64,000 bases of DNA, taken from the NCBI GenBank assembly GCA_965213705.1, contig OZ243913.1, positions 1,728,001 to 1,792,000 on the forward strand. The letters run 5' to 3'. Under the pieces are notes generated by a model. It worked only from the letters and a program-made list of their open reading frames with translations. It had not been told where the DNA came from and did no database searches. Positions 1 to 64,000 of the stretch are shown here, piece after piece. The position numbers and the translations under genes were made by a program. Each line of letters begins with the position of its first letter. The first letter of the stretch is position 1. The stretch is from Trueperaceae bacterium. Lineage in GTDB: Bacteria; Deinococcota; Deinococci; Deinococcales; Trueperaceae.

Positions 1-435
1 GGTATTTTTGAAATGGGGGGCGGCCTCGTCAACTTAAACCGCGTCGCCGAAGGTGACTCGTCCGCGCTCAGCGCAGAAGCGGGCAACCTGAGATACGACG
101 AAGCCACCGACCAAATCCTGCTCACCGAAAACGTGTCCATCGAATCCGACGGGCGCGTGAGCCAGGCCGACTCGGTCGAGTTCGACGACGCCAACAGCGT
201 CGCTGTTTTAACGGGCGACCCCGCGACCAGCCGCAAGGGCGACGAATTTTTTCAGGGCAACGTCATCACCTATTACTTGGACAGCAACGACGTGAAAGTG
301 ACCGGCAACATCCAAGGCGAACTCACCCTCGACCTGGGCGGTGAAGGGGCGACCACTACGGCCGGCGAGGACGGCTCGGCGGATACCCCCGACGAAGAAG
401 CGCCCCAAACACCCGACCCCAACCCGTCCCAGTAG
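1..435 (+). CDS. LptA/OstA-like beta-jellyroll protein, C-terminal part (frame open at window start)
   Basis: Frame open from base 1; repeats like 'AGNLRYDEATDQILLTENV' and 'ADSVEFDDANSVAVLTG' resemble LptA/OstA strands. Confidence 0.6.
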   Translation, partial: GIFEMGGGLVNLNRVAEGDSSALSAEAGNLRYDEATDQILLTENVSIESDGRVSQADSVEFDDANSVAVLTGDPATSRKGDEFFQGNVITYYLDSNDVKVTGNIQGELTLDLGGEGATTTAGEDGSADTPDEEAPQTPDPNPSQ

Positions 436-482
436 GTTTAAGCAGTAGGTTTGAGCTGTGGGTTTAAGCAGTAGGTTCAAGC
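431..482. repeat. Four imperfect 13-nt tandem copies (AGTAGGTTTAAGC) between convergent stop codons
   Basis: agtaggtttaagc agtaggtttgagc tgtgggtttaagc agtaggttcaagc. Confidence 0.85.
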
Positions 483-887
483 TTGGACTTTGGGAAAATC
501 CAGTACGAGCAGGCCGTCGCGCAGGCTCGCGTGGCTGCGCGCGTAGTCGACTTCGCCGGGCAACTCGACGCTGCGCTGAAAGTGGCCGCTGGCTCGTTCG
601 TTCAAGATAACGTCGACGCCGTCACCCGAACCGTCACTTGAGGGCTCGTACAGGGGCTCGCGCAGGCCCGCCACGGTAAGGCTGCGGCCCTGCAGGGCGA
701 TTTCTAAGTTTTCCTGGGTCACGCCGGGCACCTCGACGACCAGCCGGTAGGCGGCCCCCAAGTCCAGCAGCTCGAGCTTGGGACCGGCGTCGGCCTCGGG
801 CGCGGCGGTGCCCAAGCGCTCTATGTCGTCGCGCAGGGCGAGCAGGTCCCGGATGTCCCGGCTCGAGTCGAACTTCTCTAGCTCCAT
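477..887 (-). CDS. Hsp20/alpha-crystallin small heat-shock protein
   Basis: 'VEVPGV..ENLEI', 'ERASGHFQRSVELP', 'ASLRDGLLVLDFPK'; TAGACT -10 box 7 nt upstream of ATG. Confidence 0.9.
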   Translation of the reverse strand: MELEKFDSSRDIRDLLALRDDIERLGTAAPEADAGPKLELLDLGAAYRLVVEVPGVTQENLEIALQGRSLTVAGLREPLYEPSSDGSGDGVDVILNERASGHFQRSVELPGEVDYARSHASLRDGLLVLDFPKVQA

Positions 888-927
888 ACGGGCGAGTCTA
901 GCACCTTAGGGTGAGGCTTTTGTTACC

Positions 928-1890
928 GTGGGCACTGTGAAAAACGCCGAACCCGAAAAGGCTGCGGCGCGTGTTGCGACCCAGACCCCCCGTCGGCGCG
1001 TTCCCGTCCTGGCTGCGCCGACCGCCGCCGGCAAAACCGCCGCCGCCCTGCAACTCGCCGCCGACCTGCCGTTAGAAGTCGTCAGCGCCGACGCGATGAT
1101 GGTCTACCGGGGCCTCGACATCGGCACCGCCAAACCGACCCCGGCCGAGCGGGCGCGGTTGCCGCACCACCTTGTCGACGTGGTCGACCCCGACGAGGCT
1201 TTCAACGTCGCCGACTTCGTGCGACTGGCGGAGGCCGCTGTCAGCGAGGTTTGGCGGCGCGGCAACATCCCTTTCGTCGTCGGCGGCACCGGCTTTTACA
1301 TCCGCGCGCTGAGTGAAGGCTTGCCGACCACGCCGGCGGCTGACAAACAGGTGCAGGCGGCGTTGTGGGCACGGCTCGAGCGCGAAGGCGTGGACGTCTT
1401 GGCGCAAGAGCTGGCCGCTTTCAGCCCCGCGGACGCCGCGCGCGCCGAGCGCAACCCGCGCCGGGTGGTCCGAGCCTTGGAAATCATCAGACGGACCGGC
1501 CGCGCCCCGGCGAGCTTTCCCATGACGAAACCCGCTTTCGAGTACGACAAAACCGTGTTGCTGCCGCCTCTGGACGCGTTGCGCCCGCGCATCGTCCTCC
1601 GCACCGAAATCATGTTCAACCGCGGCCTGGTCGAAGAGGCGGCCTCGTTGCAGCGGCGCTACCCCGCGCAAACCACCGCGCGGCAGGCCATCGGTTACAA
1701 GGAGGCCGGCGCTTACCTGACGGGCGGCCTCACGCTGGACGAGGCCAAGGCGGCGGTGACGCTGGCGACGACGCAGTACGCCAAGCGCCAGCGCACCTGG
1801 TTCCGCAAGGAAACGGGCGCAACCTTTTACGAGACTGTGGCGACGGACGTGTTGGGGGAATTATGGGGGTGGCTCGAGGGCTGGGTTTAG
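928..1890 (+). CDS. miaA: tRNA dimethylallyltransferase
   Basis: APTAAGKT, SADAMMVYRGLDIGTAKP, VGGTGFY, AIGYKE, YAKRQRTWF. Confidence 0.97.
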   Translation: MGTVKNAEPEKAAARVATQTPRRRVPVLAAPTAAGKTAAALQLAADLPLEVVSADAMMVYRGLDIGTAKPTPAERARLPHHLVDVVDPDEAFNVADFVRLAEAAVSEVWRRGNIPFVVGGTGFYIRALSEGLPTTPAADKQVQAALWARLEREGVDVLAQELAAFSPADAARAERNPRRVVRALEIIRRTGRAPASFPMTKPAFEYDKTVLLPPLDALRPRIVLRTEIMFNRGLVEEAASLQRRYPAQTTARQAIGYKEAGAYLTGGLTLDEAKAAVTLATTQYAKRQRTWFRKETGATFYETVATDVLGELWGWLEGWV

Positions 1891-1990
1891 AAAGATTTTT
1901 CCTTGGCTCCGACCTACTAAACTGACGGACACTCTCGTTTCTTTATCCTCGCTACCGCCACGCCCGCCGCTCGAGCGTTAAACTGGCCTT

Positions 1991-3757
1991 ATGTCCTTGA
2001 GCTTTCTCGCGCCGCAGTTTTTGTGGGCGCTGCTGGCTGTTCCGGTGGTCGTGTTGCTGCACTTTATCCGCGCGCGCAAAAAACGCTACGAGGTGTCGGC
2101 GCTGTTTTTGTGGAAGCAGGCCCAGGAACTCGCGGCGGCGCGGCGGCGCTTTAGCCCGAGCGTGTTGCTGCTGCTCCAACTCGCTTTCGTGACGTTGGCC
2201 GCGCTGGCCCTGGCCCAACCGAGTTTGAGCCTGAGCGGCCCGCCCGAGCGGGTGCTGGTTGTCGACGCTTCGGCGAGTATGGCGGCGCGTGACGCGGGCG
2301 GGGTACGTTTGAACGAGGCCGTGGCGGCGGCTAAAACGCTTCTGCGCGGCGCGGGCCGGGTGGCGGTGGTGCGGGCCGGGCTGGGCGCGGCGGTGGTGCA
2401 ACCCCTCACCACGGACTTGGGCGCGGTCGAGCGCGCCCTGGACGGCCTTGTCGCCGCCGACCGCGAGGCCGACCTGGGGCGGGCGCTGTCACTGGCGCTG
2501 GCAATCGCACCCGACGCCGAAGTTCACCTGTTCACCGACGCCGAGCCGCCCCCCAGCAACCGCGCGGCGGTTCACGGCGTCGGCGGCGACGGCCTCAACA
2601 TAGGTATCAGCACGTTCGATATAGGTCTGCAGCAAGCTTTTGTGGCGGTGGTGAGCAACCACCCGCGGCCCCAAGAGGTGGGGCTCGAGCTGGCCCAGGA
2701 CGGCCGCGTCGTCGCGCAGACCACGCTGCTCGTTCCCGCGGCGGGGCAGGCCAACGCGTCGTTTCCGTTGGGCGACGCCACAGGGTTTTTCGAGGCGCGG
2801 CTGTTGGCGCCGGACTGGGATGCACTCGCTTTAGACGACTTGGCTTACGCCGGCAAACGTGATTTGCGAGTGGTCCTCAACCTAGCCGACGAGGCCGTCG
2901 AGCGCGCCCTCAGCGCGATTCCCGACCTCAGCTACCAGGTTCTTCCCAACGCCGCCCCGAACGCCCCCGGCTTCGGGGCACGCGTGTTGACAGGGGTCGC
3001 CCCCGAAAGTTTGGCGGAGGGCAACTACCTCCTTTTCGCCGCGCCCAGCGACGAGCCGGCGTTCAAGACCGTGCGCACCTGGGACCGCAGCGACCCGCTG
3101 CTGCGTTTTGTCGACCTGAGCGGTGCGGTCGTCGGTTTGCCCGCCAACCTGTTCGGCGCCTCGACCGATTCCTCGCCTGGTTCCTCGTCTGGCTCTTCGG
3201 CTGCAACCGTGGCGGCAACCGTACCGCCAGGCTGGCAAGTGTTGGCGCAAACCGGCGACCTGACGCCGGTCATCTTGCGCAAAACGGAACCCGACCTGAA
3301 CGTCGTCGCGGCCAACTTCAACCCGGCCCAAAGCGACCTCGTCAACCGTTCGGCTTTTCCGCTGTTCGTGACCAACGTCGTCAACGGGTTCCGCGACGAA
3401 ACACCGTTGGTGCTGGGCGAACCCTTGCCACCGGGCGCGGCGCTGCTCGTGGGTGAGCGCGAGGTGCCCCGCGCCCAGGCGACGCAGCCGGGGCTCTACA
3501 GACTGGACGGACAGACCTACGCGGCGAGCCTGCTCAGCTCGGCCGAGTCGCGCCTGAGCACCTTTCAAGAGGAAACGGTGGCCCCCGAACCCGAAGAAAC
3601 CTCTCAGCGGGTAAGAAACGCGGCGCTCTGGCTCGTCGCGCTGGCCGCCCTGTTTTTGACGGCCGAGTGGCTGCTGTGGTCGCGCGGGCGGCGCAGACCC
3701 TGGCACTTCGGCCCCTGGCGATTTAAACCTTGGCGGCCCCGCCGGCTGCGCCGCTAG
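1991..3757 (+). CDS. BatA N-terminal + vWA domain membrane protein
   Basis: N-terminal 'FLAPQFLWALLAVPVVVLLH', MIDAS-like 'VDASASM', 'LFTD', C-terminal 'LFLTAEWLL' TM. Confidence 0.85.
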   Translation: MSLSFLAPQFLWALLAVPVVVLLHFIRARKKRYEVSALFLWKQAQELAAARRRFSPSVLLLLQLAFVTLAALALAQPSLSLSGPPERVLVVDASASMAARDAGGVRLNEAVAAAKTLLRGAGRVAVVRAGLGAAVVQPLTTDLGAVERALDGLVAADREADLGRALSLALAIAPDAEVHLFTDAEPPPSNRAAVHGVGGDGLNIGISTFDIGLQQAFVAVVSNHPRPQEVGLELAQDGRVVAQTTLLVPAAGQANASFPLGDATGFFEARLLAPDWDALALDDLAYAGKRDLRVVLNLADEAVERALSAIPDLSYQVLPNAAPNAPGFGARVLTGVAPESLAEGNYLLFAAPSDEPAFKTVRTWDRSDPLLRFVDLSGAVVGLPANLFGASTDSSPGSSSGSSAATVAATVPPGWQVLAQTGDLTPVILRKTEPDLNVVAANFNPAQSDLVNRSAFPLFVTNVVNGFRDETPLVLGEPLPPGAALLVGEREVPRAQATQPGLYRLDGQTYAASLLSSAESRLSTFQEETVAPEPEETSQRVRNAALWLVALAALFLTAEWLLWSRGRRRPWHFGPWRFKPWRPRRLRR

Positions 3758-4341
3758 GGGGCTCGAGCCCGAACGTCGAAGGCAACCCGGACCGGGTCGT
3801 CGACTTCAACGCCGAAAAAGCTGGGCCGTTTCATGTCGTAGTCGCTCAGCTTGACCGTGAACGCGCCCGTCGCCGCGTAGGTCGCGCCGCTGCGGCTGAA
3901 GGTGGCCTCCGTCGTCACCTCGCGCCTGACGCCGTGCATCGTCAAGGTGCCGGCAAGGGTAAGCTCGAGCGCTTCGCCGTCACCCAAGCTGTCGCGGGGG
4001 GCTTGCACGTCCGCCAGTTCAAAGGTGATGTCGGGGTACTCACCCGTTTCGAACACGACGCGCCGCGCGTTGGCGTCGCGGATGAAGTTGCCCGAGTCGA
4101 ACTGTCCGGGCTGAACCGTCACGCTGAGTTGCGCCGCGCGCACCTGGTTCGGGTCGAGGCTGAAGGTGAGCCGCGCGACGGGCGCTCGCCCACTCCAACT
4201 GTTTGAAGGGTCCGAGGCCGTGTACTCGACCACGCTGTCCGGTAACAGCTCGAGCTGCGCGACCGCTAGGGTACTCAAAGCCAAAATGCTCAGGGTCAGG
4301 GTGCTCAAGGCCAACAAAACCAGCGTGAATCGTTTTTTCAT
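3754..4341 (-). CDS. YceI-family secreted lipid/polyisoprenoid-binding protein
   Basis: Start moved to MKKRFTL (signal peptide); 'FDSGNFIRD', 'YPDITF', 'GTLTMHGV', 'LSDYDM'. Confidence 0.85.
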   Translation of the reverse strand: MKKRFTLVLLALSTLTLSILALSTLAVAQLELLPDSVVEYTASDPSNSWSGRAPVARLTFSLDPNQVRAAQLSVTVQPGQFDSGNFIRDANARRVVFETGEYPDITFELADVQAPRDSLGDGEALELTLAGTLTMHGVRREVTTEATFSRSGATYAATGAFTVKLSDYDMKRPSFFGVEVDDPVRVAFDVRARAP

Positions 4342-4616
4342 AGCACCAGTATCGCCTTTGAACGGGCTTTCACACGTCGCGAGTCCTGAACTTACTGTCT
4401 CGCTCGAGAGGTTCACAGCTCGCGTTTTGAGCCCTTTCGGCCTCGCTCGACTCGACTTTAAGGAGGCTCGACGTTCCTGTTTGAAGGCGCTCAAGCAGGA
4501 ACGTCGGCTATCTTGTAGCGGCGCGGCGTCCGCGGAGCGGGGGCCGACCCCCTGAGCCGTCAATCCCGACTGGTTTACTGGTTGTTAATCGGAATCATTC
4601 CGATTAAACTAAGGCT

Positions 4617-5135
4617 ATGAACCCCGACCCCGCTACCCAAACGCCCGCCGACGCCCACGCCAACCCTGCTTTTGTGCTTCAGGTGGTGCAGCCCGCCCTG
4701 CTCGGGCTCATGGACGGCTCGGTCTCGACGCTCGCGCCGCTTTTTGCCGCTGCCGAGTTGACGGGCAACCCGCTTTCCGCCTTTTACGTCGGCATGGCGG
4801 CGGCGCTGGGCGCGGGCATCAGCATGGGTCTTGCCGAGGCCTTGTCGGACGACGGCGCTGTGTCGGGCCGGGGCAACCCCTGGGTGCGCGGCGCGATTAC
4901 CGGCGGCGCGACGATCGTCGGCGGGATGCTCCACACCTTTCCCTTTCTCCTCGGCAACCTGCAGACGGCGCTCTATTTGGCCTACGCCGTCGTCACTGCC
5001 GAACTGCTGGTCATCGCCTACATTCGCTACCACTACATGAAAAGTCCGCTCGGCCGAACCGTCCTGCAGGTCATTGTGGGCGGCGGCATCGTCTTCGGGG
5101 TGGGCCTGCTGCTGGGCCGCTTGGGCACGGGCTGA
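4617..5135 (+). CDS. VIT1/CCC1-family membrane protein (MbfA C-terminal-like, putative Fe/Mn transporter)
   Basis: '[18 protein letters not shown]', '[16 protein letters not shown]'. Confidence 0.85.
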
Positions 5136-5202
5136 TACGGATTCCGATACTACAGCTCGTAAACCTTGTAAGAGTCTTTCGCTTCCTTACCGGAATCCGT
5201 AT
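5135..5202. mobile_element. 68-bp MITE-like element with 12-bp terminal inverted repeats
   Basis: ATACGGATTCCG (5135-5146) ... CGGAATCCGTAT (5191-5202); same 12-mer at 35594 and 49643. Confidence 0.65.
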
Positions 5203-5386
5203 TTTATTCTCGTCTGCTCGCGCTTGATTCTAAAAGAATTAACGGAAAGGTATGAGGTGCTTCTCGAGCGCCCCTGAAAAACCTTTGACAGGAACTTAAC
5301 CGGTTTAACCCGTACTCGTTTTCGTTCGGGTTGACTCGCTCTCGCAAGTCCACTGCGAACCTACTCAGGAAACACTCAAACGCAGT

Positions 5387-6397
5387 TTAGGTAGAAGGCA
5401 AAAGCTCGAGCCCCTTCAACGCCTCTATGTCCTTAGCCCCCGAACAGTGCATGGCGACTTTAAGTTCCCAAACGAGCTGTTCCAAAACTTCCGTCACGGC
5501 CTCGGCGGAACGTGTGGCGGGCTCGAGCAGCGGTTTGGCGACCGCGACCACCTCTGCGCCCAAAACCAGCGCTTTGGCAATGTCTACGCCCGAGCGAACA
5601 CCGCCCGAGGCGACGAGGGGCGTCTCAGGCAGTGCCGCGCGCACCTCCTGCAGGGCGGTCGCGGTGGGAATGCCCCACTCGGCCAACTCGGCGGAGCGCA
5701 CCCGGCCGTAGTTCACAAACTCCTCGACCTTCGCCCAGGAGGTGCCGCCCGCGCCCGCCACGTCTAGTGCGGCGAAGCTGACACCCGCGACGCTTTTCGC
5801 CACCGCCGCGCTCAAGCCGTGGCCGACCTCTTTGAGCAGGACGGGATAAGGAACTTGGGGGACAAGGGTCTCGAGCTTGGGCACGAGATTCGCAAAGTTC
5901 GTGTCGCCGTTTTGTTGTAGGGCTTCTTGCAGCGGGTTCGTGTGCAGCGCCAGCGCGTCCGCGCCGATAGTTTCTACCGCCCGCCGCAACTCGGTTACCC
6001 CGTAGCCCTTGTTCAGTTGAGCTACGCCCAGGTTGCCGACGAGGAGCGCGCTCGGGGCGTAGGGCCGCACCTTGAAAGAGGCGGCGGCCTCGGGATGCTC
6101 GAGCATGACGCGCTGCGAGCCGAGCATCATCCCCACGCCCAAAGTTTCGGCGGCCGTCGCGAGGTGGCGGTTGATGGCGGCCGACAGTTCCGCGCCGCCG
6201 GTCATCGCGCCGATGAGTATCGGGGCGTTTAAGCGTTTGCTTAGAAAGGTGGTGCTCGTGTCGACGCGCCGCAGGTCGCTTTCGGGCAAAGCCTGATAGG
6301 GCAGGTCGAAGCGCTCGAAGCCGGTCGTGCGCGTGCTGTACTCGACCCCGTAACGCAGGCACACGTCGACGTGTTTGAGTTTGCGCTCGGTCAGCAT
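5387..6397 (-). CDS. fni: Type 2 isopentenyl-diphosphate isomerase
   Basis: RKLKHV, GAMTGG, LGSQR, NPLQE, KEVGHG, AGAGGTSW, SGGVR. Confidence 0.96.
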   Translation of the reverse strand: MLTERKLKHVDVCLRYGVEYSTRTTGFERFDLPYQALPESDLRRVDTSTTFLSKRLNAPILIGAMTGGAELSAAINRHLATAAETLGVGMMLGSQRVMLEHPEAAASFKVRPYAPSALLVGNLGVAQLNKGYGVTELRRAVETIGADALALHTNPLQEALQQNGDTNFANLVPKLETLVPQVPYPVLLKEVGHGLSAAVAKSVAGVSFAALDVAGAGGTSWAKVEEFVNYGRVRSAELAEWGIPTATALQEVRAALPETPLVASGGVRSGVDIAKALVLGAEVVAVAKPLLEPATRSAEAVTEVLEQLVWELKVAMHCSGAKDIEALKGLELLPST

Positions 6398-6484
6398 GTC
6401 GTCAGCATAGCTGAGAGCATACCGCGCTCGAGTCTTTTGGTTTCATAAAACTAGAAACCTTTGTACAAGGTCGGCTTCAACCGC

Positions 6485-6560
6485 GTCATCCTAAAGGGTA
6501 GCGAAGAACCCCGCGAGGGTGAGCTGCGAAGATTCGTCGCTGCGCTTCGTCCAGGATGGC
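6485..6560. repeat. REP-like palindrome of GTCATCCT...AGGATGRC type
   Basis: GTCATCCT..AGCGAAGAA ... TTCGTCGCT..AGGATGGC imperfect inverted repeat. Confidence 0.6.
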
Positions 6561-6598
6561 AAGGGACGTAGTCGACCAAGCAACCCTGTCGGGTGGCT

Positions 6599-8305
6599 TC
6601 AGTCGTGCGAGGCGGCTCCGTAGACTGCGGCGGGGTCGCTCGGCAAGGGGACGTGGTCGGGCCCCTCGAGCCGTTTTGCCAGCAGCGCCTTGAGGTCGTC
6701 CAAGCCTGCGCCGCTCAGCGCCGACACGCCCAGCGCGCCGTAACGCTCCGCCAAGCCCGCCAGTACCGTTTCGTGCGCGACGTCCGCTTTGTTGATGACC
6801 ACCAGGCGCTCGACTTTGAGGTCGAGGTCGTCCAGAATGCGCTCGACCGCGTCTACTCGGTCGGGCGCGCCGGGCGTGGCCCCGTCGACGACGTGCAGCA
6901 GCAGGTCGGCGTCGTGGAGTTCTTCCAGCGTGGCCCGAAAAGCGTTGACGAGTTCGTCGGGCAGGTCGCGGATAAAGCCGACCGTGTCGGTATAGAGCAC
7001 CTTTTCACCCCACTGTCCTAACGCGGGCAGCCAACCCTCCCGCGTCGTCGGGCGCAGCGTGGCGAAGAGTTTGTTCGCGCTCTGCGCGTCGGCCTTGGCG
7101 AGCGCGTTGAAGAGCGTGGACTTGCCCGCGTTGGTGTAGCCGACCAAGGCGATGACGGGCGTGCTCGACCCCGTGCGCGTCTTGCGCGTCTCGGCGCGGC
7201 GCGCGCTGATTTCGTCGACCTCTTTTTCCAGGGCCGTGAGGCGTTCGCGGATGCGGCGGCGGTCGAGTTCGAGCTTCGTCTCGCCGGGGCCGCGCGTGCC
7301 TATGCCGCCGCCCAAGCGGCTCAGCGCGGTGCCGCGCCCGGCCAGACGCGGCAACTGGTAGTGCAACTGCGCCAATTCGACTTGCACTTTGGCCTCGCGC
7401 CCGCGGGCGTTCTGCGCAAAAATGTCCAAGATGAGCTGGGTGCGGTCGATGGTTTTGAGGTTCGTTTCCGCTTCGATTTCGCGCGCCTGCGCCGGGTTGA
7501 GTTCGCGGTCGAAAATCAGCAGGTCGGCGTCCTCGTGGTAGGCTTTTGAGACGAGTTCTTGCAGTTTGCCGCGGCCAATCAGGGTGCGCGGGTCGGGGCT
7601 CGGGCGCTGCTGGCGGCTCGTGTAGACGACGCTCGCCCCGGCGGTGCGGGCGAGTTCGGCCAACTCGTCCAGCCGCGACTCGGCCTCGAGCGCTCCCTGA
7701 CCCGTGTCCAGCCCGATGAGTACGGCGCGCTCGCTGCTGCTGCGCTTGACCTCACGCGCTTGGCTGCTGCGCACCAACTCTTCTTCCAGCGCGCGGATGC
7801 GTTCCAACATCGGCACGTTTTCCAGCGCCGCCATGCTCATGGGCGCTTCGATGATCCAGTCTTCTTCTTGCGCGCTCACCGGCGCAATCATCGCTAAGTG
7901 TGCGCTTTCCAACACCACGCTGCCGCGCTCGTTCTCGAACAGGTCGACGGCTAAAATCGCGTCGAGCCGGTTCAAAAACAGTTTGGACAGGTCGGCGCTC
8001 GAGAGCCCGCCTTTTTTGAGGTGCGTGTGAACCAGCCGCAACCCGTAAAGCCGCGACTCGGCCTCGCCGTAGAGCGGCGGCAGCGGCGTGTCCGCGGCGT
8101 CGCCGACGGCGACCGTCGTCACCCGGCCACGCCGGTCTATCAGCACCGAGACGGGCGAGTTGACTTCCAGGCTCAGTTCACCCAGCGCCCGCAGCAGGTC
8201 GGCGGTCGCGGGCATGTCGGGCGGAACTTTACGGCGGTAGAGGTTGCTGAGGCTTTTGACCTGGCTTTTTTTGAGACCGCTGAGTTTACCGTGAACTTTT
8301 TCGAT
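6599..8305 (-). CDS. hflX: Ribosome-splitting GTPase HflX, long form; probable ATC start
   Basis: GYTNAGKS, KLFATL, DTVGF, NKAD; frame extends 30 codons past the first ATG to ATC (8303-8305) with AAAGGAG 8 nt upstream. Confidence 0.95.
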   Translation of the reverse strand: MEKVHGKLSGLKKSQVKSLSNLYRRKVPPDMPATADLLRALGELSLEVNSPVSVLIDRRGRVTTVAVGDAADTPLPPLYGEAESRLYGLRLVHTHLKKGGLSSADLSKLFLNRLDAILAVDLFENERGSVVLESAHLAMIAPVSAQEEDWIIEAPMSMAALENVPMLERIRALEEELVRSSQAREVKRSSSERAVLIGLDTGQGALEAESRLDELAELARTAGASVVYTSRQQRPSPDPRTLIGRGKLQELVSKAYHEDADLLIFDRELNPAQAREIEAETNLKTIDRTQLILDIFAQNARGREAKVQVELAQLHYQLPRLAGRGTALSRLGGGIGTRGPGETKLELDRRRIRERLTALEKEVDEISARRAETRKTRTGSSTPVIALVGYTNAGKSTLFNALAKADAQSANKLFATLRPTTREGWLPALGQWGEKVLYTDTVGFIRDLPDELVNAFRATLEELHDADLLLHVVDGATPGAPDRVDAVERILDDLDLKVERLVVINKADVAHETVLAGLAERYGALGVSALSGAGLDDLKALLAKRLEGPDHVPLPSDPAAVYGAASHD

Positions 8306-8630
8306 AGGGAACGCTCCTTTTCGCCGGCACTGGTCTGAGCGGCGTGGCGTGAATACACAGACGAATTTTGAGGTATGAACAAGCCGGTGCCGCGCTTCGC
8401 AACTAGGCCCTCGAGGGGCCGCGCTGAGAGGCGCAACGGGTTTGGTTTGGGTCTGTCAAGGTCATACCAGTGTAGGGGGTTTCAGATGAAAAGGATGTAA
8501 GCCTTGTCCCAAAACGAGAAACGGCGGGAAATGGCGCAGGACAAACCCGGCCCTTTGTCTCTCGACGTTCTCTCGGCACAAGGGGAAGAGTTCACGTCGC
8601 GCCGCGCGCGGCCCTTGTTAGACTGCGCCC

Positions 8631-9083
8631 ATGCGACGGCTTTTGCGGCGTTTCGGCTTGGCGGCTTGTCTGGTGAGTTTGGCCGCCTGTGCGCCCCGCT
8701 CCCGAGCGGACTACAGTTTGCTCACCACTTCGGACGGCGGGGCGAGCTTTTCGACACTTATCGCCCCCTTTTACCGTGACTTAGCCGTGCTGGACGTGCG
8801 GGTGGACGTTTACGACAGTTTTCGCTACGACGGGCAGGACCCACACGTGCAAGACCGCGTAGTGGACAACTTTCAGGCCAAGTACCAGGCCGAAGACAAA
8901 GGCTTTTGCGAACTTCGCAACCGCTACCGCAGCCCGGACGGCCGACACGTCATGGTGTTGGCGTCGAACGACAGCTTGGACGTTCGCGGCGTCGTCTACG
9001 ACTTGTCGCGGCACCCGCGGCTGGTTTACGCTTACTTTGAAGGCCGCGTGTTCAGCCCACTGCCAACCAAGCGCTGTCGCTGA
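8631..9083 (+). CDS. Hypothetical lipoprotein
   Basis: Basic N-terminus, lipobox LAAC, TAGACT 6 nt upstream of ATG. Confidence 0.7.
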   Translation: MRRLLRRFGLAACLVSLAACAPRSRADYSLLTTSDGGASFSTLIAPFYRDLAVLDVRVDVYDSFRYDGQDPHVQDRVVDNFQAKYQAEDKGFCELRNRYRSPDGRHVMVLASNDSLDVRGVVYDLSRHPRLVYAYFEGRVFSPLPTKRCR

Positions 9084-9107
9084 CGAGGAAATTAGGAACA
9101 GGGGAGA

Positions 9108-9986
9108 TTGAAGACGAGGGAGAAAGCCGTGGTGTTGCGTCGGGGTTGGGTTTTGAGCTTGCTCGTGTACGCGGCGGTCGGTACGGCCTTTTCTCAGGGT
9201 TTGGCGGCGCAAGACGCTGGGGGCGTGGTTTACGTCGCGCTCGAGGAGGTCGCGAGCCGCCTGGGCTACAGCCTGAGCGGGGGCGAAAGCAGTCTGACGC
9301 TGCGCGCCGCGGCGGGCGTGGCGGTGGTGTTCGCCGACTCGCCCGACATCCTCTTCAAACCCAAAAACAGCGTCGCAGCCCTCGAGCGGAGCGACCAGAG
9401 TTTGGCCGCTCCCGTACTCAAAACGGGTGAGACGTGGCTCGCGCCGTTGGAACTGCTCGAGCTGCTCGGCTTCACGGTGACGAACAAGAGCGTGACCACC
9501 CCGGAGGGTCGAACGTTCGCCCTGAACTTTGCAGCGCCCGACGTACCTCAAACGTCTCAGCGCGGCGAACTCGTCGACCTGGGCAACGGCGTCACCGGCG
9601 TAAGTTTTTACCTGCCTGGTGTCGCCGGGCCTGAGACCGTGAGCGTGCTGGTTTTGGACCTCAGCCTGCTCGCCCTGGTTTTTCCCCAGCAGCAGCGTAG
9701 CTTAGACGCGGTAGCGGCCAAGTTCAAAAACGCCAAACCCCTTTACTTTGCGGCGACAACGCTCGGCGCGGCCGAGTGGCAACCGGTTTTCACCGTGACC
9801 CAGGCCGGGCGCAGCGCGGAAGTGCGCTATCCTTTCGGTGTCAGCGTGCTGGCCGGGGACGCGGGCACCCTCACGCCCGACACGCCGGTTTCCGGTCTCG
9901 TCTTGCTGCCCACTTGGGTCAACTTGCGGCAACCGCTGACGCTCCGTTTGGCCGGGGTGAGCGCGACCGTGCAGTTTCGGCGCTGA
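9108..9986 (+). CDS. Hypothetical secreted protein (copper amine oxidase N-terminal/stalk-like motifs)
   Basis: Signal peptide; 'YVALEEVASRLG', 'APVLKTGETWLAPLELLELLG'; start uncertain. Confidence 0.6.
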   Translation: MKTREKAVVLRRGWVLSLLVYAAVGTAFSQGLAAQDAGGVVYVALEEVASRLGYSLSGGESSLTLRAAAGVAVVFADSPDILFKPKNSVAALERSDQSLAAPVLKTGETWLAPLELLELLGFTVTNKSVTTPEGRTFALNFAAPDVPQTSQRGELVDLGNGVTGVSFYLPGVAGPETVSVLVLDLSLLALVFPQQQRSLDAVAAKFKNAKPLYFAATTLGAAEWQPVFTVTQAGRSAEVRYPFGVSVLAGDAGTLTPDTPVSGLVLLPTWVNLRQPLTLRLAGVSATVQFRR

Positions 9987-36521: not shown

Positions 36522-36911
36522 TTAGCTCATGCCGCCTTCAGTGATGGTGTAAAGTTTCTGACCGTTTGCATGTTTGACGGTGTAGGTGTAAGTACCTGTG
36601 GCAGCGGCCGCACCAGTAACAGTGATGTTGGTATCGTTGCAAACACCAGTGCCATAAGTGCTAGCTTTCGTTTCGTCACCGAAGAGGGTGGCGGCGGCGG
36701 GGTAACCACCCTCTTTGGGGTTGTCAATTTTCCAGATAGCAGCGGCGCTAGCTAGCGACTTACCACAGCTCTGAGCGGCGGTGTCATAAGCCCGCTGACG
36801 AGCACCAAGCAGGTTCGGGATGAGAACCGCGGCTAAAATACCGATGATTGCAATGACAATCAGCAGTTCGATGAGGGTGAAACCCCCGTTTTTCTTACCG
36901 GTATTGCGCAT
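36522..36911 (-). CDS. Type IV pilin, likely major pilin
   Basis: G|FTLIELLIVIAIIGILAAVLIPNLLGAR; SD GAGG; hairpin downstream (36470-36497). Confidence 0.9.
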   Translation of the reverse strand: MRNTGKKNGGFTLIELLIVIAIIGILAAVLIPNLLGARQRAYDTAAQSCGKSLASAAAIWKIDNPKEGGYPAAATLFGDETKASTYGTGVCNDTNITVTGAAAATGTYTYTVKHANGQKLYTITEGGMS

Positions 36912-37214
36912 GGTGTTGCCTCTCTGGGACACTCGATAAAGGATGAATGAAAGGCGAGTATCCTGGTTCTGAATTCAGCCTCGGGGATTCCCTGGGGCTC
37001 AGAAGTAAGTTTAGGGTTAAGGTCTTACAAATTCCTTACAAAATTTCATAGTTGCGGGTTTCGCCGTGCCGAACGGCGCAAACGCGGGGGCGGGACGGCG
37101 CAATAATTTTTGGGCTCGTCCTAAAATGCTTTCTTGCGACGAATGTAGGTGAAGGCCAATTTTGCGGCTGTTATACATCAACTTATCCTGTGTGTAACCG
37201 TATATAGTGGCAAA

Positions 37215-37799: not shown

Positions 37800-37974
37800 G
37801 GTTGTCTCGAGCACCAACTCTCCCCACAACGGCGAGGTGTGATGCAAGACGGCTTCGCGGTTGTCCGGGTTTGGAGCCTTCTACCCTGAGCCACAGGTTA
37901 AGCGTGTGTTAGAATTCCCACACTCGGTAACTCGGCACTAAAGTCGGGCTGCCAAGTCCTAACAAGGAGGCACA

Positions 37975-52354: not shown

Positions 52355-53746
52355 ATGAAAAAAGGGTTACTGATTTTAAGCCTGATGCTTATGCCCGTCG
52401 TGGCATACGCACAAGACACCGGCGGCGAGACCGGTGGCGCCATGATGGGCGACATGATGGTGACGGACGGCACCTACGAGGTTCAGTTGTCCGGCAGCCA
52501 AGAAGTGCCCCCGGTGATGACCGACGCGACCGGTTCGGCAACCTTTACCCTGACGGGCGACGCTTTGAGCGTCACAGGTGACTTTGAAAACCTCAGCAGC
52601 ATGGCTATCGAAGTTGCGGGCACACCCGCTCACATCCACATGGCCCCGATGGGTGAAAACGGCCCCGTCGTCATCCCCTTGAACGTGACCCTGGCCGAAG
52701 ACGCCATGAGCGGCATCTTTAGTGTCGACGCCACGCTCACGCCCGAGCAAACCGACGCCGTCATGGCGGGCAACTTCTACATCAACGTCCACAGCGAAAT
52801 GCACCAGGGCGGCGAGCTGCGCGGTCAACTCGTCTCGAGCATGATGGGCATGGACCAGATGGGCATGAACCAGGGCATGGGTATGGCCTTCGCCGACCTA
52901 GACACCGACATGAGCGGCTCGCTGAGCGAAGACGAGTTCAACGTCGGCATGGAGTCGGGCGGTATGATGGGCGCGTTCACCGACTTCGACACCGACATGA
53001 GCGGCGACATTAGCGAAGACGAGTTCAACAGCATGTCCGGCATGATGGACATGGACGGCGGCATGATGGGTTCCGGCCTGACGGTGGTCGACCCGGACGG
53101 CAACATGGCACCTATGGTTTTCAGCGACCTCGACACCGACATGAGCGGCACCGTCGACGAGAACGAGTTCAACGCCGGTATGGAGATGTCGGGCGGCAGC
53201 ATGATGGGCACACTGGCCGACTTTGACACCGACATGAGCGGTGACTTAAGCGAAGACGAGTTCAACGCGATGAACACCGGCATGATGGACACTGGCATGA
53301 CGGACATGGGCATGATGGGCGAAACCGGCGGCGCGATGATGGACGGCATGATGGGCATGACCTTTGCCGACCTCGACACCAACGCTGACGGCGGCATCGA
53401 CCAGATGGAGTTCGACACTGCGATGGGCATGATGGACGGCATGAGCTTTGCCGACCTCGATACCGACGGCAGTGGCATTATCGACGAAATGGAATTCGAC
53501 GCCGCGATGGGCATGATGAACGACAACATGTCGGGCGACGCCCTGACGGTCGTCGGCCCTGACGGTATGCCCCTTATGACTTTTGCGGACTTTGACACCG
53601 ACATGAGCGGCACTATCGACGAGGACGAGTTCAACGCCGGTATGGAGATGTCGGGCGGCACCATGACCGGCACCTTCAGCGACTTTGACACCGACATGAG
53701 CGGCGACTTAAGCGAAGACGAATACAACGCGATGAGCCAACCGTAA
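52355..53746 (+). CDS. Secreted Met-rich protein: CHRD domain + eight EF-hand-like loops
   Basis: Signal peptide; 'LSGSQEVPP..AHIH..YINVHS..GELRGQ'; DTDxSGxxxxxE loops x8. Confidence 0.85.
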   Translation: MKKGLLILSLMLMPVVAYAQDTGGETGGAMMGDMMVTDGTYEVQLSGSQEVPPVMTDATGSATFTLTGDALSVTGDFENLSSMAIEVAGTPAHIHMAPMGENGPVVIPLNVTLAEDAMSGIFSVDATLTPEQTDAVMAGNFYINVHSEMHQGGELRGQLVSSMMGMDQMGMNQGMGMAFADLDTDMSGSLSEDEFNVGMESGGMMGAFTDFDTDMSGDISEDEFNSMSGMMDMDGGMMGSGLTVVDPDGNMAPMVFSDLDTDMSGTVDENEFNAGMEMSGGSMMGTLADFDTDMSGDLSEDEFNAMNTGMMDTGMTDMGMMGETGGAMMDGMMGMTFADLDTNADGGIDQMEFDTAMGMMDGMSFADLDTDGSGIIDEMEFDAAMGMMNDNMSGDALTVVGPDGMPLMTFADFDTDMSGTIDEDEFNAGMEMSGGTMTGTFSDFDTDMSGDLSEDEYNAMSQP

Positions 53747-53763: not shown

Positions 53764-53801
53764 AAAAGCGGGACTCGGCACGTGCCGAGTCCCGCTTTTT
53801 T
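53764..53801 (+). terminator. Intrinsic terminator
   Basis: AAAAGCGGGACTCGGCACGTGCCGAGTCCCGCTTTTTT. Confidence 0.85.
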
Positions 53802-54032: not shown

Positions 54033-55446
54033 TACAGAGTTTCGTCCGGGTTTCAGTGCAAGCTGAGATCCGGACGAAATTCATCTTTGTGGAAAAAGAC
54101 GATGTGCAAGGGATAATAAGGCATCGTCACCGCCGACGAGAGGTGCGTACTGAGTGACTACAAGAAAAGAAGCGAGGTGCTCAAGCGCGGTTGAGAAGGT
54201 TCGGGGTCCGGGTCTACCCTTGGTATGGGTTTGACCCAACCGGGTAAGAAAGTCGAGCGCTTCATCCTCCTCGGCTACACCCAGGTCGTGCAAGAACGCC
54301 GCGGCTATCCAGGCGAAAGCTACAAGCGTCTTCAAAGCTTCAAACGACATGAGTTGCACAGTTTCCCAACCAAGACTCGACTTCGACCAGGCGAACAGGT
54401 CTTCTATCGCCCAGCGCTGCCGGTAGGTTTTCAAGAGACGTTCGAGCAGTTGCTGCTCTTCACCCTCGCGCAGCGTGAGGTTGGTGATGAGCACCCAACC
54501 TTTAGTTTTAAGCTTGGAGCGGACTTGCGCCACACATACCTCAAGCCCGAGCGCGTCTGCAAGCTCAACTTGAACCGCCGCTATAGCAACCGGCACAGGC
54601 TCGTGTTTGTGGCGTTTAGCGCTCGGGTCGAGCAAGCGTTTTTCGAGACTGGCGTTCGCCAGTAAAGGTGCAGACCCTAGCACCTTTGTAAGGTTGCTGG
54701 GGCGGTTGTTGAGCAGACACTTACGTTTCATGTGCTGCACGCGGGTCACGAAGCAGTCCCCCTTTTGGTGAATGTGCCGCATCAGCTTGAGGTTGTCGCC
54801 GGCCCTGTCGACAACCCACAGCAACCTACCTACCCCTTGAGCACGGAGCGCAGCCGTAACAGCGTCGATGGCTTGGCAATACGCTACGTTTGCGCTTTTG
54901 AAGCCCGGTTCCAGGGTAGAAAAGCTGTGGTGATAGACAATCGCCCTGACGCCACTCTCGCCGATAGCCAGCACGTTCAAGGTGTGAAAGCCTGAGACGG
55001 GTTCGCCTTCCAAACTTCTGACCGTGTCCAGGTGTTCCAAACAGCTTGCAAACGGTTTACGCAGGTCGCTTTCGTCCATAATCAGTAGCACCTCGTGTTC
55101 ACCCTGCAGGCGTTTAGCACCTTCTTTTGTCAACTGAGTCGTAAGACGGTCTGCACTCAGGTCAGCCCGGTCATTCTGGTTATGCACCAGGCGACGGACG
55201 CGCCTTTCGGCGTGCAAGCTCGTTCCCAAGCTGCTACTGCTTTTGGCAATTCGGCTAACCCTCAAATCCCCGCTGCCGATAATGCCCTGCAACGTACCCA
55301 CAAAACCATCGAATAACCTTCTGTCCTTGAACAAGTCTTTGTAACCAGCAGCGAACGTTTCCAGTTTGGATAGCTTTGTTTGCATAATGCTCTGGTTATA
55401 CAGACTTTTGTCCGGTCAACAGTGCAACCTCTTGACGAATGCTGCA
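54033..55446 (-). mobile_element. Insertion sequence (IS4/IS701-like); ends approximate
   Basis: Transposase flanked by related hairpin repeats at 54033-54082 and 55399-55446; lower GC; no CTCGAG seen inside. Confidence 0.65.
54081..55385 (-). CDS. DDE transposase, IS4-like
   Basis: MDESD, VDRAGD, Y-2-R-3-E-6-K (YRQRWAIEDLFAWSK). Confidence 0.9.
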   Translation of the reverse strand: MQTKLSKLETFAAGYKDLFKDRRLFDGFVGTLQGIIGSGDLRVSRIAKSSSSLGTSLHAERRVRRLVHNQNDRADLSADRLTTQLTKEGAKRLQGEHEVLLIMDESDLRKPFASCLEHLDTVRSLEGEPVSGFHTLNVLAIGESGVRAIVYHHSFSTLEPGFKSANVAYCQAIDAVTAALRAQGVGRLLWVVDRAGDNLKLMRHIHQKGDCFVTRVQHMKRKCLLNNRPSNLTKVLGSAPLLANASLEKRLLDPSAKRHKHEPVPVAIAAVQVELADALGLEVCVAQVRSKLKTKGWVLITNLTLREGEEQQLLERLLKTYRQRWAIEDLFAWSKSSLGWETVQLMSFEALKTLVAFAWIAAAFLHDLGVAEEDEALDFLTRLGQTHTKGRPGPRTFSTALEHLASFLVVTQYAPLVGGDDALLSLAHRLFPQR

Positions 55447-56381: not shown

Positions 56382-56415
56382 ATGTGGGGGCGGTTAGTCC
56401 GAAACGGCCTTGGCG

Positions 56416-58522: not shown

Positions 58523-58551
58523 GGTTTCCTCTCGAGTCCCAACGACTTGCC

Positions 58552-60445: not shown

Positions 60446-60673
60446 ATGGCGAAAGTATGTTCTATCTGCGGCAAAGGCCCCATCGTCCGCAACCAACTCG
60501 TGCAGTCGGGCAAAGCTAAAAGCAAGGGCGGCGTCGGTCGCAAGACGACCGGCATCACCAAGACCTGGAAGTACCCGAACCTTCAAAAAGTCAAGGTGTG
60601 GCGCGACGGCAACGCCCAGGCGCAGCGCGTCTGCACCTCGTGTATCCGCGAGGGCAAAACGCTCGCGGCTTAA
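60446..60673 (+). CDS. rpmB: 50S ribosomal protein L28 (Zn-ribbon type)
   Basis: [28 protein letters not shown]. Confidence 0.95.
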
Positions 60674-60713
60674 ACCCTGTACAAATCAAACCCTGTACAA
60701 AAGCTTAAAGACC

Positions 60714-60751
60714 AAAGCGAGCCGAGGTGAACGCCTCGGCCTTCGCTTTTC
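60714..60751 (+). terminator. Intrinsic terminator after rpmB
   Basis: AAAGCGAGCCGAGG..CCTCGGCCTTCGCTTTT. Confidence 0.7.
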
Positions 60752-60818
60752 AGGGCGGGCTGCGAGCGGCGTGCTAAACTTTTTTTGTGGCCCGTCCATT
60801 TAAAAAAAGGTTTACCGT

Positions 60819-61544: not shown

Positions 61545-61545
61545 C

Positions 61546-62772
61546 GTGCCGAGCCCCGACGGCCCGACCGCTTTCGAAGTCGTGTGGCGCAACCCCTGGG
61601 TGCGTGCCCTAACCTACCTCGCACTCGCCGCCTTTGTGCTGTGGTTGTTGGTGCGCTACCAGTCCGGCTACGCCTTCGCGCTGCAAGTCGCCATCATCGG
61701 CTTCGTCATCGCCTACATCCTCAACCCGCTCGTGCTGCTGTTGGGGCGTGTCCGGATTCGGCGGGCGCTCGCGGTCGTCATCATTTACGTGCTGCTGCTG
61801 TTCGTGATTGTGCTCGGCTCGGTGCTGATTACGCAAGTGGTCACCGAACTTGGGCGGTTTATCACCCTTATTCCGACGGCGCTGACCAACATCGGTGACC
61901 TGACCGGCACCGTGTCCACCTGGGCGACCGGGCTGGTCGAGCGCCTGCCCGCCGTGTTGTCCGACCGGCTGGGTTTGGGCGGCTCGAGCGAGGCCATAAG
62001 CGTGCAGGTTCAAGAGCAGTTCGCCGAACTGGTCGCGGACACCACCGCCAGCATCACGGTGTTGTTGGAGAGGTTGGTGCGGGAGGGTCCGAGCCTGCTG
62101 CTCTCCGGCGGCACAACAATCGTCTCGACGACTTTGCAGGTGTTTTTGATTTTGCTGGCGAGCGCTTACTTTCTTTACGACTTTCCAAAGTTCACGGCGG
62201 CTTTTCGCCGTGCGGTGCCGGTGCGGTGGCGGCCCCTCTACGCCGACCTCATCGAAAAGGCGGACGCGGCGGTGGGCGGCTACCTGCGCGGGCAACTCCT
62301 CATCACCTCCGTTTTGGGCATTTTTATTTTTATCGGCCTGACTCTTATCCGCGTGCCGCTGGCCCCGGCCATCAGCTTCTTAGCGGCGCTGTTCAACATC
62401 GTGCCGTACCTGGGGCCTATCATCGGCGTGATTCCAGCGGTGCTGCTCGGCTTTACGGTCAGCCCGCTCACCGCGCTCCTGGCCGTCGTCGTGTTCGTGG
62501 TGGCGAACCAGTTGGAAGGCCACTTTTTGGCACCTTACATCTTGTCCAAAAGTACCGACCTGCACCCGGTCACGGTGCTCCTGGCGATTTTGGCGGGCGC
62601 GGGGCTGTTCGGCTTTTTGGGCGCGCTCTTGGCCGTGCCGACGGTCGCGCTCGTCAAGCTGGTTTTAGAAGAATACCTGTACCGGCGCTCCGCTTACCAC
62701 GAGGTTCCGGTCGCGCCGCCGACCGAAGAAGCGCTCGACACGCCGCTGTTGGCGCGGTCTGAAGGAGACTAG
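61546..62772 (+). CDS. AI-2E/PerM-family transporter
   Basis: 'AYILNPLV', 'GGYLRGQ', 'VPYLGP', 'LHP', 'GALLAVP'. Confidence 0.92.
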   Translation: MPSPDGPTAFEVVWRNPWVRALTYLALAAFVLWLLVRYQSGYAFALQVAIIGFVIAYILNPLVLLLGRVRIRRALAVVIIYVLLLFVIVLGSVLITQVVTELGRFITLIPTALTNIGDLTGTVSTWATGLVERLPAVLSDRLGLGGSSEAISVQVQEQFAELVADTTASITVLLERLVREGPSLLLSGGTTIVSTTLQVFLILLASAYFLYDFPKFTAAFRRAVPVRWRPLYADLIEKADAAVGGYLRGQLLITSVLGIFIFIGLTLIRVPLAPAISFLAALFNIVPYLGPIIGVIPAVLLGFTVSPLTALLAVVVFVVANQLEGHFLAPYILSKSTDLHPVTVLLAILAGAGLFGFLGALLAVPTVALVKLVLEEYLYRRSAYHEVPVAPPTEEALDTPLLARSEGD

Positions 62773-62834
62773 CGTAGCGCGACGGGTTTTCCTTTGCTAG
62801 CGGGCGCAGGGCGCAACGCGGTACAGTAAGCCAC

Positions 62835-64000
62835 GTGGCACGCTCGAACACCAAACGCAAGAAAAAGTCTGCCAAAACCGCGTCCAAAACCGGCTCGGCT
62901 TTCGACCTCGAGGCGCTGGGCCTGGTTCTCTTAGCCATCGGCATTTTTATCCTCGGCCTGCTCGTCCCGCAGGTGCCGACGGGTGAATGGGGGAGGAGTT
63001 TGCGCAGTCTAGCGACCGCGCGCGTCGGCTTGGGCGCGTACGTGTTGCCCTGGCCCTTCCTCGTGCTGGGCGCTTTGTTCCTGCTCCGGCGCAACCCGAA
63101 GGGCTGGCCTCGAGTGCTGGCGGGTTATCTCGTTTTGGCCCTCGGGTTGTGGTGTTTGGCGATGCTGGCTTACCCAGCCGTGACCGGGCGCTGGGGCGCG
63201 GCGTTGCGCGGTTACTTGGACGGGGCGGCGGGCCTGCTCGCCTACGTGCCCGCCCTGTTTATCGCGAGCGTCGGGTTGGACTTGCTGTTGGGTTGGACGC
63301 CGACACGGCTTACCAGGACTGTCTCGAGGGGCAGCGTCGACGGCGTGCGGCGCGGTTTCAAGGGCTTTGTGGCGGCGCGGGCCGGTTGGAAAAAACGAGC
63401 CGCTTTCAAGGCCGACGTCGCGCTTGCCAAAAACGACTTGAGCAACCTTGACAAAGACCTGCAAGCTTTGGAGAGCTTGTACCCCGGCAGCGCCGAGGTC
63501 GGCAAGTGGCGCAAGTCGGTGGCGGTCTCGCTCAAACAGCTCAAAAAACCGACCCCCGCCGACCTCGCCGATATCAGTCAGGACCTGCACGCCTGGCAGG
63601 GGGCGGTCGGAGACTTTACTAAGGACCGCGCCAAGGAACTCTCAGTGTACTTGCGCGGCGAGGGCGTGCCGGACTTTGGCGCGCTGACAAAGCGTGTCAA
63701 AGCCAGTTTCGACGACCCCGTCACCGAGCCCGGCTCCCTGGGTAAAGCCCTCGACAGCGTGCGCAAAGCCTTAGCCCTCGACCTGACCGCCCTCGCCGAG
63801 CGGCACCGCCGCAGCTTGCGCGAGCGCGACCTGGCCGAAGCCGCCCTCAAAGACATGCGCCCTCGAGACCTGGTGAAAGCCTCCGAAGACCACAACAAGC
63901 GCACCGAGCAGTACCGGCACGTCGCCGCCGACGCTGCGGCCCTGGAAACGTACGCCGACACGCTCGAGCCCTGGCGCGACCTCGTCGGCAAACACGCGCG
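62835..64000 (+). CDS. ftsK: DNA translocase FtsK, N-terminal part (runs off window; not in ORF track)
   Basis: TACAGT-N7-GTG; basic N-terminus then 'FDLEALGLVLLAIGIF' and several TMs, like Deinococcota FtsK; ATPase domain lies outside the window. Confidence 0.6.
   Translation, partial: MARSNTKRKKKSAKTASKTGSAFDLEALGLVLLAIGIFILGLLVPQVPTGEWGRSLRSLATARVGLGAYVLPWPFLVLGALFLLRRNPKGWPRVLAGYLVLALGLWCLAMLAYPAVTGRWGAALRGYLDGAAGLLAYVPALFIASVGLDLLLGWTPTRLTRTVSRGSVDGVRRGFKGFVAARAGWKKRAAFKADVALAKNDLSNLDKDLQALESLYPGSAEVGKWRKSVAVSLKQLKKPTPADLADISQDLHAWQGAVGDFTKDRAKELSVYLRGEGVPDFGALTKRVKASFDDPVTEPGSLGKALDSVRKALALDLTALAERHRRSLRERDLAEAALKDMRPRDLVKASEDHNKRTEQYRHVAADAAALETYADTLEPWRDLVGKHA

Follow-up and report, generated by a model that had tools for sequence, protein, structure and literature searches.

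The genome of a Trueperaceae bacterium (assembly GCA_965213705.1; a single contig of 4.25 Mb, 60.9% GC) hoards the palindrome CTCGAG, and this word almost certainly forms a real system of the kind known as highly iterated palindromes (HIPs). It is likely the counterpart, in a second phylum, of HIP1 of cyanobacteria. The excess came to notice in a stretch of 64,000 nucleotides of the contig (OZ243913.1), hereafter the window, for which the original prediction had put forward a lineage-wide HIP-like signature, seen as CTCGAG and as its octamer form GCTCGAGC, and had named methyl-directed repair as a possible origin and DNA uptake, recombination or nucleoid organisation as possible uses. By SecY sequence, the nearest relatives bearing a name are labelled Trueperaceae or Truepera. 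Window positions count within this stretch, and G000:C1 coordinates refer to the whole contig, G000 being the source genome.

The source genome holds 8,868 CTCGAG, that is, 2.09/kb (2,088 per Mb) or about one per 480 bases, with 154–258 in each full 100-kb bin. The observed-to-expected ratio (O/E) was 6.35 at order 0, 3.69 at order 2 and 1.47 at maximal order, and CTCGAG ranked first among all hexamers by over-representation. Other palindromes were mostly avoided, GATC being 10-fold down. The octamer occurred 2,879 times, 22-fold above base composition, with an O/E of 8.4 at order 2 and 0.97 at maximal order, and a flanking G was found in 58% of cases on each side of CTCGAG. The last O/E value indicates that the unit is the hexamer with an independent G preference on each side. 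The octamer, originally proposed as the unit, was thus rejected for this genome and holds only in some relatives such as G005. In the window, a recount of the first 10 kb gave the numbers and octamer positions first reported (Table 1), against 3.4 hexamers and 0.36 octamers computed from composition, in line with the earlier estimate. The nine intergenic examples all lay between called genes, two being off by one (34825 and 42090). The transposase and pilin genes did lack CTCGAG, although with only about 2.7 and 0.8 sites expected this is weak alone.

We then used our own gene calls (3,872 genes, 3,221 of them in the shuffling) and shuffled synonymous codons within genes. The O/E of CTCGAG in the three frames was 2.54, 20.3 and 3.63, and that of CTC-GAA was 0.21; the Leu-Glu frame held 4,800 of the 6,703 coding sites. 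Intergenic gaps of 30–600 bases carried 2.3–2.8 CTCGAG/kb vs 2.05/kb in genes, with an intergenic O/E of 4.85. No 12-base flank was common to three of the 1,654 intergenic sites, and hairpin arms there matched shuffled pairing in length, except at about seven sites, so that an origin from repetitive extragenic palindromes or hairpins was rejected. Collectively, these data show that the excess acts at the DNA level, independently of codons and repeats. As the original prediction had anticipated, it persists after control for TCGA and dicodon frequency and is found between genes.

Multi-copy elements contained 15 CTCGAG in 36.8 kb (0.41/kb vs 2.09/kb overall): the transposase without CTCGAG is typical of young mobile DNA, which does not show the excess. 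Copies of insertion sequences differed at 285 positions, one of them touching CTCGAG, too few to tell the direction of change. The 43 GATC-rich genes, probably foreign, still had an O/E of 2.66. Site use was lowest in the region of ribosomal-protein genes and in genes of the most typical composition, with 36–37% of Leu-Glu pairs vs 53%. Leu-Glu sites showed no extra amino-acid conservation (0.809 vs 0.808), and the Leu-Glu pair itself had an O/E of 1.25, a value without outside control.

Spacing between sites was slightly more even than random (coefficient of variation of gaps 0.94). Leu-Glu occupancy rose from 0.41–0.51 near another CTCGAG to 0.55–0.65 far from one, while Leu-Asp stayed flat. 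Words one substitution away from CTCGAG were depleted (0.54–0.89), probably an overstatement since the expectation includes the motif. Autocorrelation and Fourier analysis in 1-kb bins, a simpler test than the damped-sine fit of Xu et al. 2018, revealed no significant kilobase periodicity, the top spectral peak being 7.2 vs a null maximum near 7.5. Nor did sites cluster at oriC, with one CTCGAG in the 437-base gap between dnaA and dnaN (G000:C1:443141-443578). A nucleoid-organising role, one of the uses first envisaged, is therefore not supported. The same gap carries a dense array of DnaA-box words. Cumulative GC skew, by contrast, reaches its minimum at around 510 kb, next to another DnaA-box cluster (~515900).

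The excess extends to relatives, sampled at 20–400 kb each with hexamers ranked out of 2,080. CTCGAG ranked first in 11 of 19 relatives, was mildly enriched (O/E 1.6–2.4) in seven and depleted in one; high-GC relatives showed an O/E of 1.6–2.0. It was densest in family f5 (5–6/kb). Within the 61 genomes of family f4, density was 1.4–3.5/kb in genera g39, g45 and g46 and 0.6–1.1/kb in g15; across 20 loci of g15 and g48, 71 of 151 TCGA were CTCGAG. Flanking G varied by lineage, from 58% in the source genome to 98% in G005 and none in G016. In G005, 1,817 of 2,026 CTCGAG are GCTCGAGC, a true octamer HIP, in the company of a divergent PaeR7I-type methylase (L171-L175 and other loci). Plasmid stretches of 50 kb gave rank 1 and an O/E of 3.1 in Allomeiothermus silvanus, 55 CTCGAG among 59 TCGA in Thermus thermophilus HB27, and a single CTCGAG (O/E 0.06) in the Deinococcus radiodurans MP1 plasmid (L430). 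Strong avoidance (O/E 0.06–0.3) was seen in D. radiodurans MP1 and G013, of a family adjoining the hoarding ones.

For 121 Trueperaceae genomes we scored the ratio CTCGAG:CTCGAC, a measure blunted at high GC. GAGCTC, which is CTCGAG reversed, was a poor control, being avoided in some genomes, and masked the g15 signal; CTCGAC and Markov O/E were used instead. The ratio was 2.1–29 in 34 genomes and at most 1.8 in 87, with the cut of 2 set after the gap was visible. A lineage-wide HIP-like signature, as first put forward, is supported.

Methylases and mismatch repair across the Trueperaceae

Among its adenine methylases, the source genome encodes one orphan, a gamma-class enzyme (Table 1) whose NPPF motif is of the N6-methyladenine (m6A) type, and has no match to PF00145, the family searched for 5-methylcytosine (m5C) methylases. 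Searches of Pfam, NCBIfam, PADLOC, PDB, plasmid, phage and Atlas collections returned no named enzyme matching it, and no full-length match turned up in 50 kb of the M. extorquens AM1 megaplasmid. No XhoI-family nuclease was matched in the source genome, though the positive control of that search also matched nowhere. Homologs of the methylase occur in 53 of the 121 genomes and adjoin dnaG in several genera; outside the phylum, the family adjoins a nuclease-like partner.

Other methylases stand in for it elsewhere. PaeR7I-type enzymes (48% identical to plasmid paeR7IM) were found in seven of the 121 genomes, all with excess and five without the type of the source genome, which at about 22% identity to them makes up a third, separate family. 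In G171, an integrative element bearing a PaeR7I-type enzyme splits the resident gene. This element (L133, G171:C4:626000-645999) spans about 8 kb, with three tyrosine-integrase-like open reading frames and pieces of an IS4-type transposase. Both types are present in G028, with a split nuclease. In genus g39, 19 of 25 genomes have the resident type, and three of the other six, the three tested, have the PaeR7I type, as do both genomes tested in g46. TaqI-like enzymes were found in all 26 g15 genomes and in G018. The g15/g48 loci (L191-L210) hold two TaqI-like subtypes in one syntenic slot, and TCGA is rare there except as CTCGAG; one of the two, the second, may have become restricted to this longer word. 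A quick methylase tree, which omits G251 and one other row, placed the copies of G001 and G021 apart from those of G000 and G063 despite shared neighbours, which suggests that copies were replaced in place within the Trueperaceae.

Given its exchange with PaeR7I-type enzymes, for which the target is CTCGAG, the methylase of the source genome probably recognises this word. The cognate methyltransferase anticipated by the original prediction has a candidate in this gene, its putative specificity being read from that exchange, and SMRT (single-molecule real-time) sequencing shows such methylation in named relatives only. Tables S3 and S4 of Blow et al. 2016 (PMC4752239) list active orphan m6A methylases for CTCGAG, M.Mru1279II, M.Mch9957IV and M.Mhy14884I, from Meiothermus ruber, M. 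chliarophilus and Marinithermus hydrothermalis, where 94–99.5% of sites are methylated.

The genome also has mutS and mutL side by side, and mutS varies in the family: a MutS_I match was found in 34 of the 121 genomes. Strong excess was observed in 29 of 32 genomes with both methylase and MutS (the 29/32 counting the unpublished G251), 2 of 26 with the methylase only, 1 of 2 with MutS only and 2 of 61 with neither, hence in 5 of the 89 genomes other than those with both. In the five cases of a high ratio despite a missing gene, the assembly is fragmented and 67–95% complete. The excess is thus found mostly where the stand-alone methylase and mutS are both kept, and the methylase alone is not sufficient, 24 of the 26 methylase-positive, MutS-negative genomes being low. 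G228, which is complete, MutS-positive and methylase-negative, has a low ratio of 1.32. A quick tree built from SecY for 50 of the 121 grouped the low genomes into one clade of 34 (SH-aLRT 94), with G180 apart. Three tips of this clade kept mutS, two of them with the methylase as well, and these two have the highest ratios (1.80 and 1.69) among the 87 low genomes. Loss of mutS accompanies high GC at third codon positions; the MutS_I match is absent from 87 of the 121 genomes, whole high-GC genera included. Of the three mechanisms originally suggested, methyl-directed repair is the best supported, by this co-distribution and by the site-confined bias described below, with the specificity of the methylase as its inferred part.

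Turnover of sites and the explanations weighed

To look at gain and loss, we aligned the source genome with its congener G001, of whose 4.3 Mb 800 kb were taken; 619 kb matched at 85% identity, with 552 genes. At the Glu wobble position after CTC, both genomes had G in 531 cases and A in 7, and they differed in 12. Loss was 0.015 there vs 0.273 in other contexts, and gain 0.63 (0.31–1.33) vs 0.40 elsewhere. At synonymous positions overall, loss was x0.05–0.31 at each of the six bases (about 3–20 times slower), and pooled gain was x3.0 (2.3–3.7). Summed log-likelihoods were -594 for the free model, -605 for a selection-like model with one parameter, -636 for protection only and -648 for gain only, the last being rejected as the poorest fit; position 6 taken alone slightly favoured protection only. 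These rates come from two genomes under a reversible two-state model, with sparse counts at positions 1, 2 and 5. The bias touched all six positions, transversions included, and since T and A were favoured at positions 2 and 5, GC-biased conversion was rejected. Intergenic CTCGAG was conserved in 61 of 92 cases vs 713 of 1,549 for words of equal composition; of CTCGAG sites at large, 67% were conserved, against 49% for hexamers in general, which placed the word 6th among 70 of its composition. Site by site, then, CTCGAG is lost more slowly and gained faster, in a selection-like manner.

The explanation we put first, tentatively and at a little less than an even chance, is that a methylation-guided repair ratchet builds the excess; a ratchet of this kind was put forward for HIP1 by Elhai 2015 (PMC4390886). 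The orphan adenine methylase would mark CTCGAG. Hemimethylated or newly methylated sites would direct strand choice without MutH, and MutS/MutL would correct mismatches with the methylated strand as template. Replication errors, or heteroduplexes formed in recombination, would be reverted where they destroy a site and retained where they create one. Single sites would have no function of their own: the word would accumulate as by a ratchet, opposed by codon selection in highly expressed genes, and would be missing from young mobile DNA and fade once repair is lost. The widest version, in which methylated CTCGAG serves much of the Deinococcota as a MutH-independent MutS/MutL strand signal, with the methylase slot refilled from three unrelated restriction-modification (RM) families and the palindrome as a repair footprint that fades on mutS loss, is possible but rather doubtful.

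Several observations weigh against the ratchet. The rate signature fits natural selection, biased conversion or biased repair equally well. No protective halo surrounds the sites: divergence was lower only within 3 bases, with no effect at 4–3,000 bases. Density dependence was only weak, and with the missing halo this is unlike a saturating long-patch model. Since all low genomes but G180 fall in a single clade, the phylogenetic case for the MutS link is weak, at about two independent contrasts. G180 itself has methylase and MutS yet a ratio of 1.16, and, against the higher ratios of the two low-clade genomes with both genes, G192 was not higher by Markov O/E (40 kb). The nuclease partner seen outside the phylum is only faintly like XhoI/PaeR7I, and RM loci of the methylase family show no CTCGAG avoidance. 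Two f5 genomes lack a shared methylase of the three types, alpha-class enzymes and MutS not having been searched there; the m5C enzyme that they do share looks MspI-like. G191, of genus g45, likewise has no shared enzyme of the three types, again with alpha-class enzymes not searched. A. silvanus has the excess, yet CTCGAG is among none of its five SMRT motifs in the tables of PMC4752239. Indeed, as A. silvanus and family f5 show, a methylase is not strictly necessary for the excess.

Some of these points suit another explanation, unlikely overall though to be taken seriously, in which a protein of the chromosome or of repair binds CTCGAG, weak selection keeps the word and the methylase is secondary. 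With a site every 480 bases, the genome would be highly exposed to XhoI/PaeR7I-type nucleases, and any CTCGAG methylase would be retained for protection (the 'vaccine' idea). Selection-like rates, slightly even spacing, lineage-specific flanks fit for a reader protein, the high CTCGAG count of A. silvanus despite no detected methylation and the unrelated enzymes in the methylase slot all agree with a binding site. The lack of kilobase periodicity and the one site in oriC do not, and the association with MutS is left unexplained; our analysis identified no reader protein.

A drive through uptake or recombination, in which (methylated) CTCGAG DNA is taken up or recombined better so that alleles spread without benefit to the cell, appears quite unlikely. 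It predicts the same slower loss and faster gain, the window contains pilin genes, and T. thermophilus is naturally competent; methylated HIP1, according to Kamoku and Nielsen (bioRxiv 2024.09.10.611283), raises transformation of Synechococcus PCC 7002 more than 100-fold. Against it stand the avoidance of CTCGAG in D. radiodurans (O/E 0.06), the location of intergenic sites outside hairpins and repeats, and the MutS link, which it does not predict. Known uptake sequences are longer and non-palindromic, and D. radiodurans is transformable.

Very unlikely, in our view, is a methylation-independent context bias of MutS/MutL, the replication machinery or an unidentified nicking enzyme, with the methylase as passenger. 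It would account for both the MutS link and the methylase-free lineages, but D. radiodurans has MutS and avoids CTCGAG, G228 is low without a methylase, and no such enzyme was found, Vsr and NucS not having been searched. Finally, a by-product of Leu-Glu codon or dicodon usage, TCGA bias or a repeat family is next to impossible and refuted for the source genome: most coding sites do lie in the Leu-Glu frame, and the mild excess of high-GC relatives may be of this sort, but the excess survives in all three frames and at maximal order, is denser between genes and shares no recurrent flank.

Features of the window and genome

Table 1. Coordinates of CTCGAG sites and of genes discussed in the text
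Feature	Coordinates	Strand	Remarks
CTCGAG sites, whole window	1..64000		105 hexamers, 39 as GCTCGAGC; sample of the genome-wide signature
CTCGAG sites, first 10 kb	770..9462		23 hexamers, 11 octamers
Intergenic GCTCGAGC	1969..1976		between miaA-like gene (928-1890) and BatA/VWA gene (1991-3757)
Further intergenic CTCGAG	5263, 6427, 8410, 14350, 34825, 42090, 52160, 56289		between called genes
Pilin-type gene, N-methyl motif (N_methyl)	36522..36932	-	53% GC; no CTCGAG
DDE transposase gene (Pfam DDE_Tnp_1)	54081..55385	-	three identical genome copies; no CTCGAG
Orphan methylase, 559 aa, gamma-class, NPPF motif	G000:C1:1135936-1137615	-	between dnaG and tsaB; outside window; no nuclease neighbour
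mutS and mutL, side by side	G000:C1:1618371-1623657		

Another repeated word, heptamer-like ACTCGG(T/C)A, has 617 hits in the genome, among them window positions 37922-37937, 53773-53790, 29500 and 39683. It forms 78 clusters of at least two, with spacings of 7, 14 and 21 bases, and its 10-base form is more than 90% intergenic. At window position 53773, two copies in inverted orientation are followed by a run of T in a terminator-like arrangement. The word is reminiscent of short heptamers repeated in tandem in cyanobacteria. The 463-aa product of window 52355-53746 contains a CHRD domain and numerous EF-hand motifs. Elsewhere, the genome carries two near-identical recA genes (G000:C1:102982-104022 and 3349163-3350221). 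A low-GC cluster at G000:C1:4058495-4061623 (L002, L011) combines an N6/N4 methylase, a MutH/Sau3AI-like nuclease and a D12-class (Dam-like) methylase, and may be related to the avoidance of GATC.

Comparison with known systems

No description of a CTCGAG excess in the Deinococcota was found in the openly accessible literature, subscription journals and REBASE lying outside the scope of the search. By term search, the main texts of Elhai 2015, Xu 2018 and PMC13756078 contain no CTCGAG, Thermus or Deinococcus. The main text of Blow 2016 (PMC4752239) has CTCGAG only for Nocardia, with no mention of Meiothermus, Marinithermus or a genome-wide excess. The enzyme of the source genome would share its motif with those in the tables of that study, for which no cognate nuclease is listed; the hosts belong to the same order. 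In Nocardia, that paper reports CTCGAG clusters at oriC, unlike the single site between dnaA and dnaN here, and lists the enzyme as m5C with a Vsr partner.

A palindrome marked by an orphan methylase that may help to choose the strand recalls Dam/GATC and MutHLS of Gammaproteobacteria, and the source genome does have MutS and MutL as methyl-directed mismatch repair requires; unlike with Dam, GATC is avoided and oriC has no motif cluster. The methylases are gamma-class like those of PaeR7I/XhoI and TaqI RM systems, and two of the three families occupy the slot in relatives, but these enzymes mostly lack a nuclease and CTCGAG is hoarded, not avoided. Enrichment by very-short-patch repair of the Vsr/Dcm kind differs in that no m5C enzyme was matched and the bias goes beyond C-to-T reversal; Vsr itself was not searched.

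The closest likeness is with the cyanobacterial palindromes, HIP1 (GCGATCGC) and its alternates (Elhai 2015, PMC4390886; Xu et al. 2018, PMC5861425). HIP classes reach roughly 500–2,500 copies per Mb in Elhai 2015, and CTCGAG, with about 2,000 copies per Mb inside and outside coding DNA, is likewise in excess in all reading frames and between genes and is the top word of its length. Its sites are conserved between genomes beyond control words, as Xu 2018 describes for HIP. It has a six-base core with a G...C flank extension and orphan methylases of more than one class, and in a minority of lineages the excess stands without a methylase that can be recognised, as in four strains listed by Elhai.

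The differences are as clear. Word and phylum are others: the source genome has four copies of GCGATCGC, and its CGATCG O/E is 0.03. HIP1 goes with GATC and CGATCG methylases, whereas the source genome has no PF00145 match, and its unit is the core hexamer, not the octamer. O/E on base composition is lower, 6x for the hexamer and 22x for the octamer vs 55–228 reported for HIP1. Unlike in Xu 2018, our simpler test detected no periodicity of tens of kilobases. The G-meC signal of the repair model presented by Elhai cannot apply as written, the source genome having no m5C methylase and methylation in the published relatives being m6A; other N6/N4 methylase genes of the source genome may make N4-methylcytosine.

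By Elhai's account, HIP1 hyper-abundance has been open for three decades, and strand choice without MutH is only partly understood. The parallel system here uses an adenine mark, includes lineages that have naturally lost mutS or the methylase, and has a genetically tractable, competent member in T. thermophilus, so that repair-ratchet, binding-site and uptake models are open to direct knockout experiments. If CTCGAG were indeed a MutH-independent strand signal, HIP systems would have arisen independently a second time, and for the first time comparative evidence would tie one to mismatch repair. CTCGAG is moreover a strong marker of lineage and recent transfer, and its methylation in donor DNA may matter for transforming these organisms. 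Collectively, CTCGAG behaves in the manner of HIP1 and its alternates yet is distinct from HIP1, being without their periodicity and G-meC features; new here are the co-distribution with MutS, a comparative test that its variation across the Trueperaceae affords and HIP1 does not, the rates of gain and loss of CTCGAG, and the Thermus test case.

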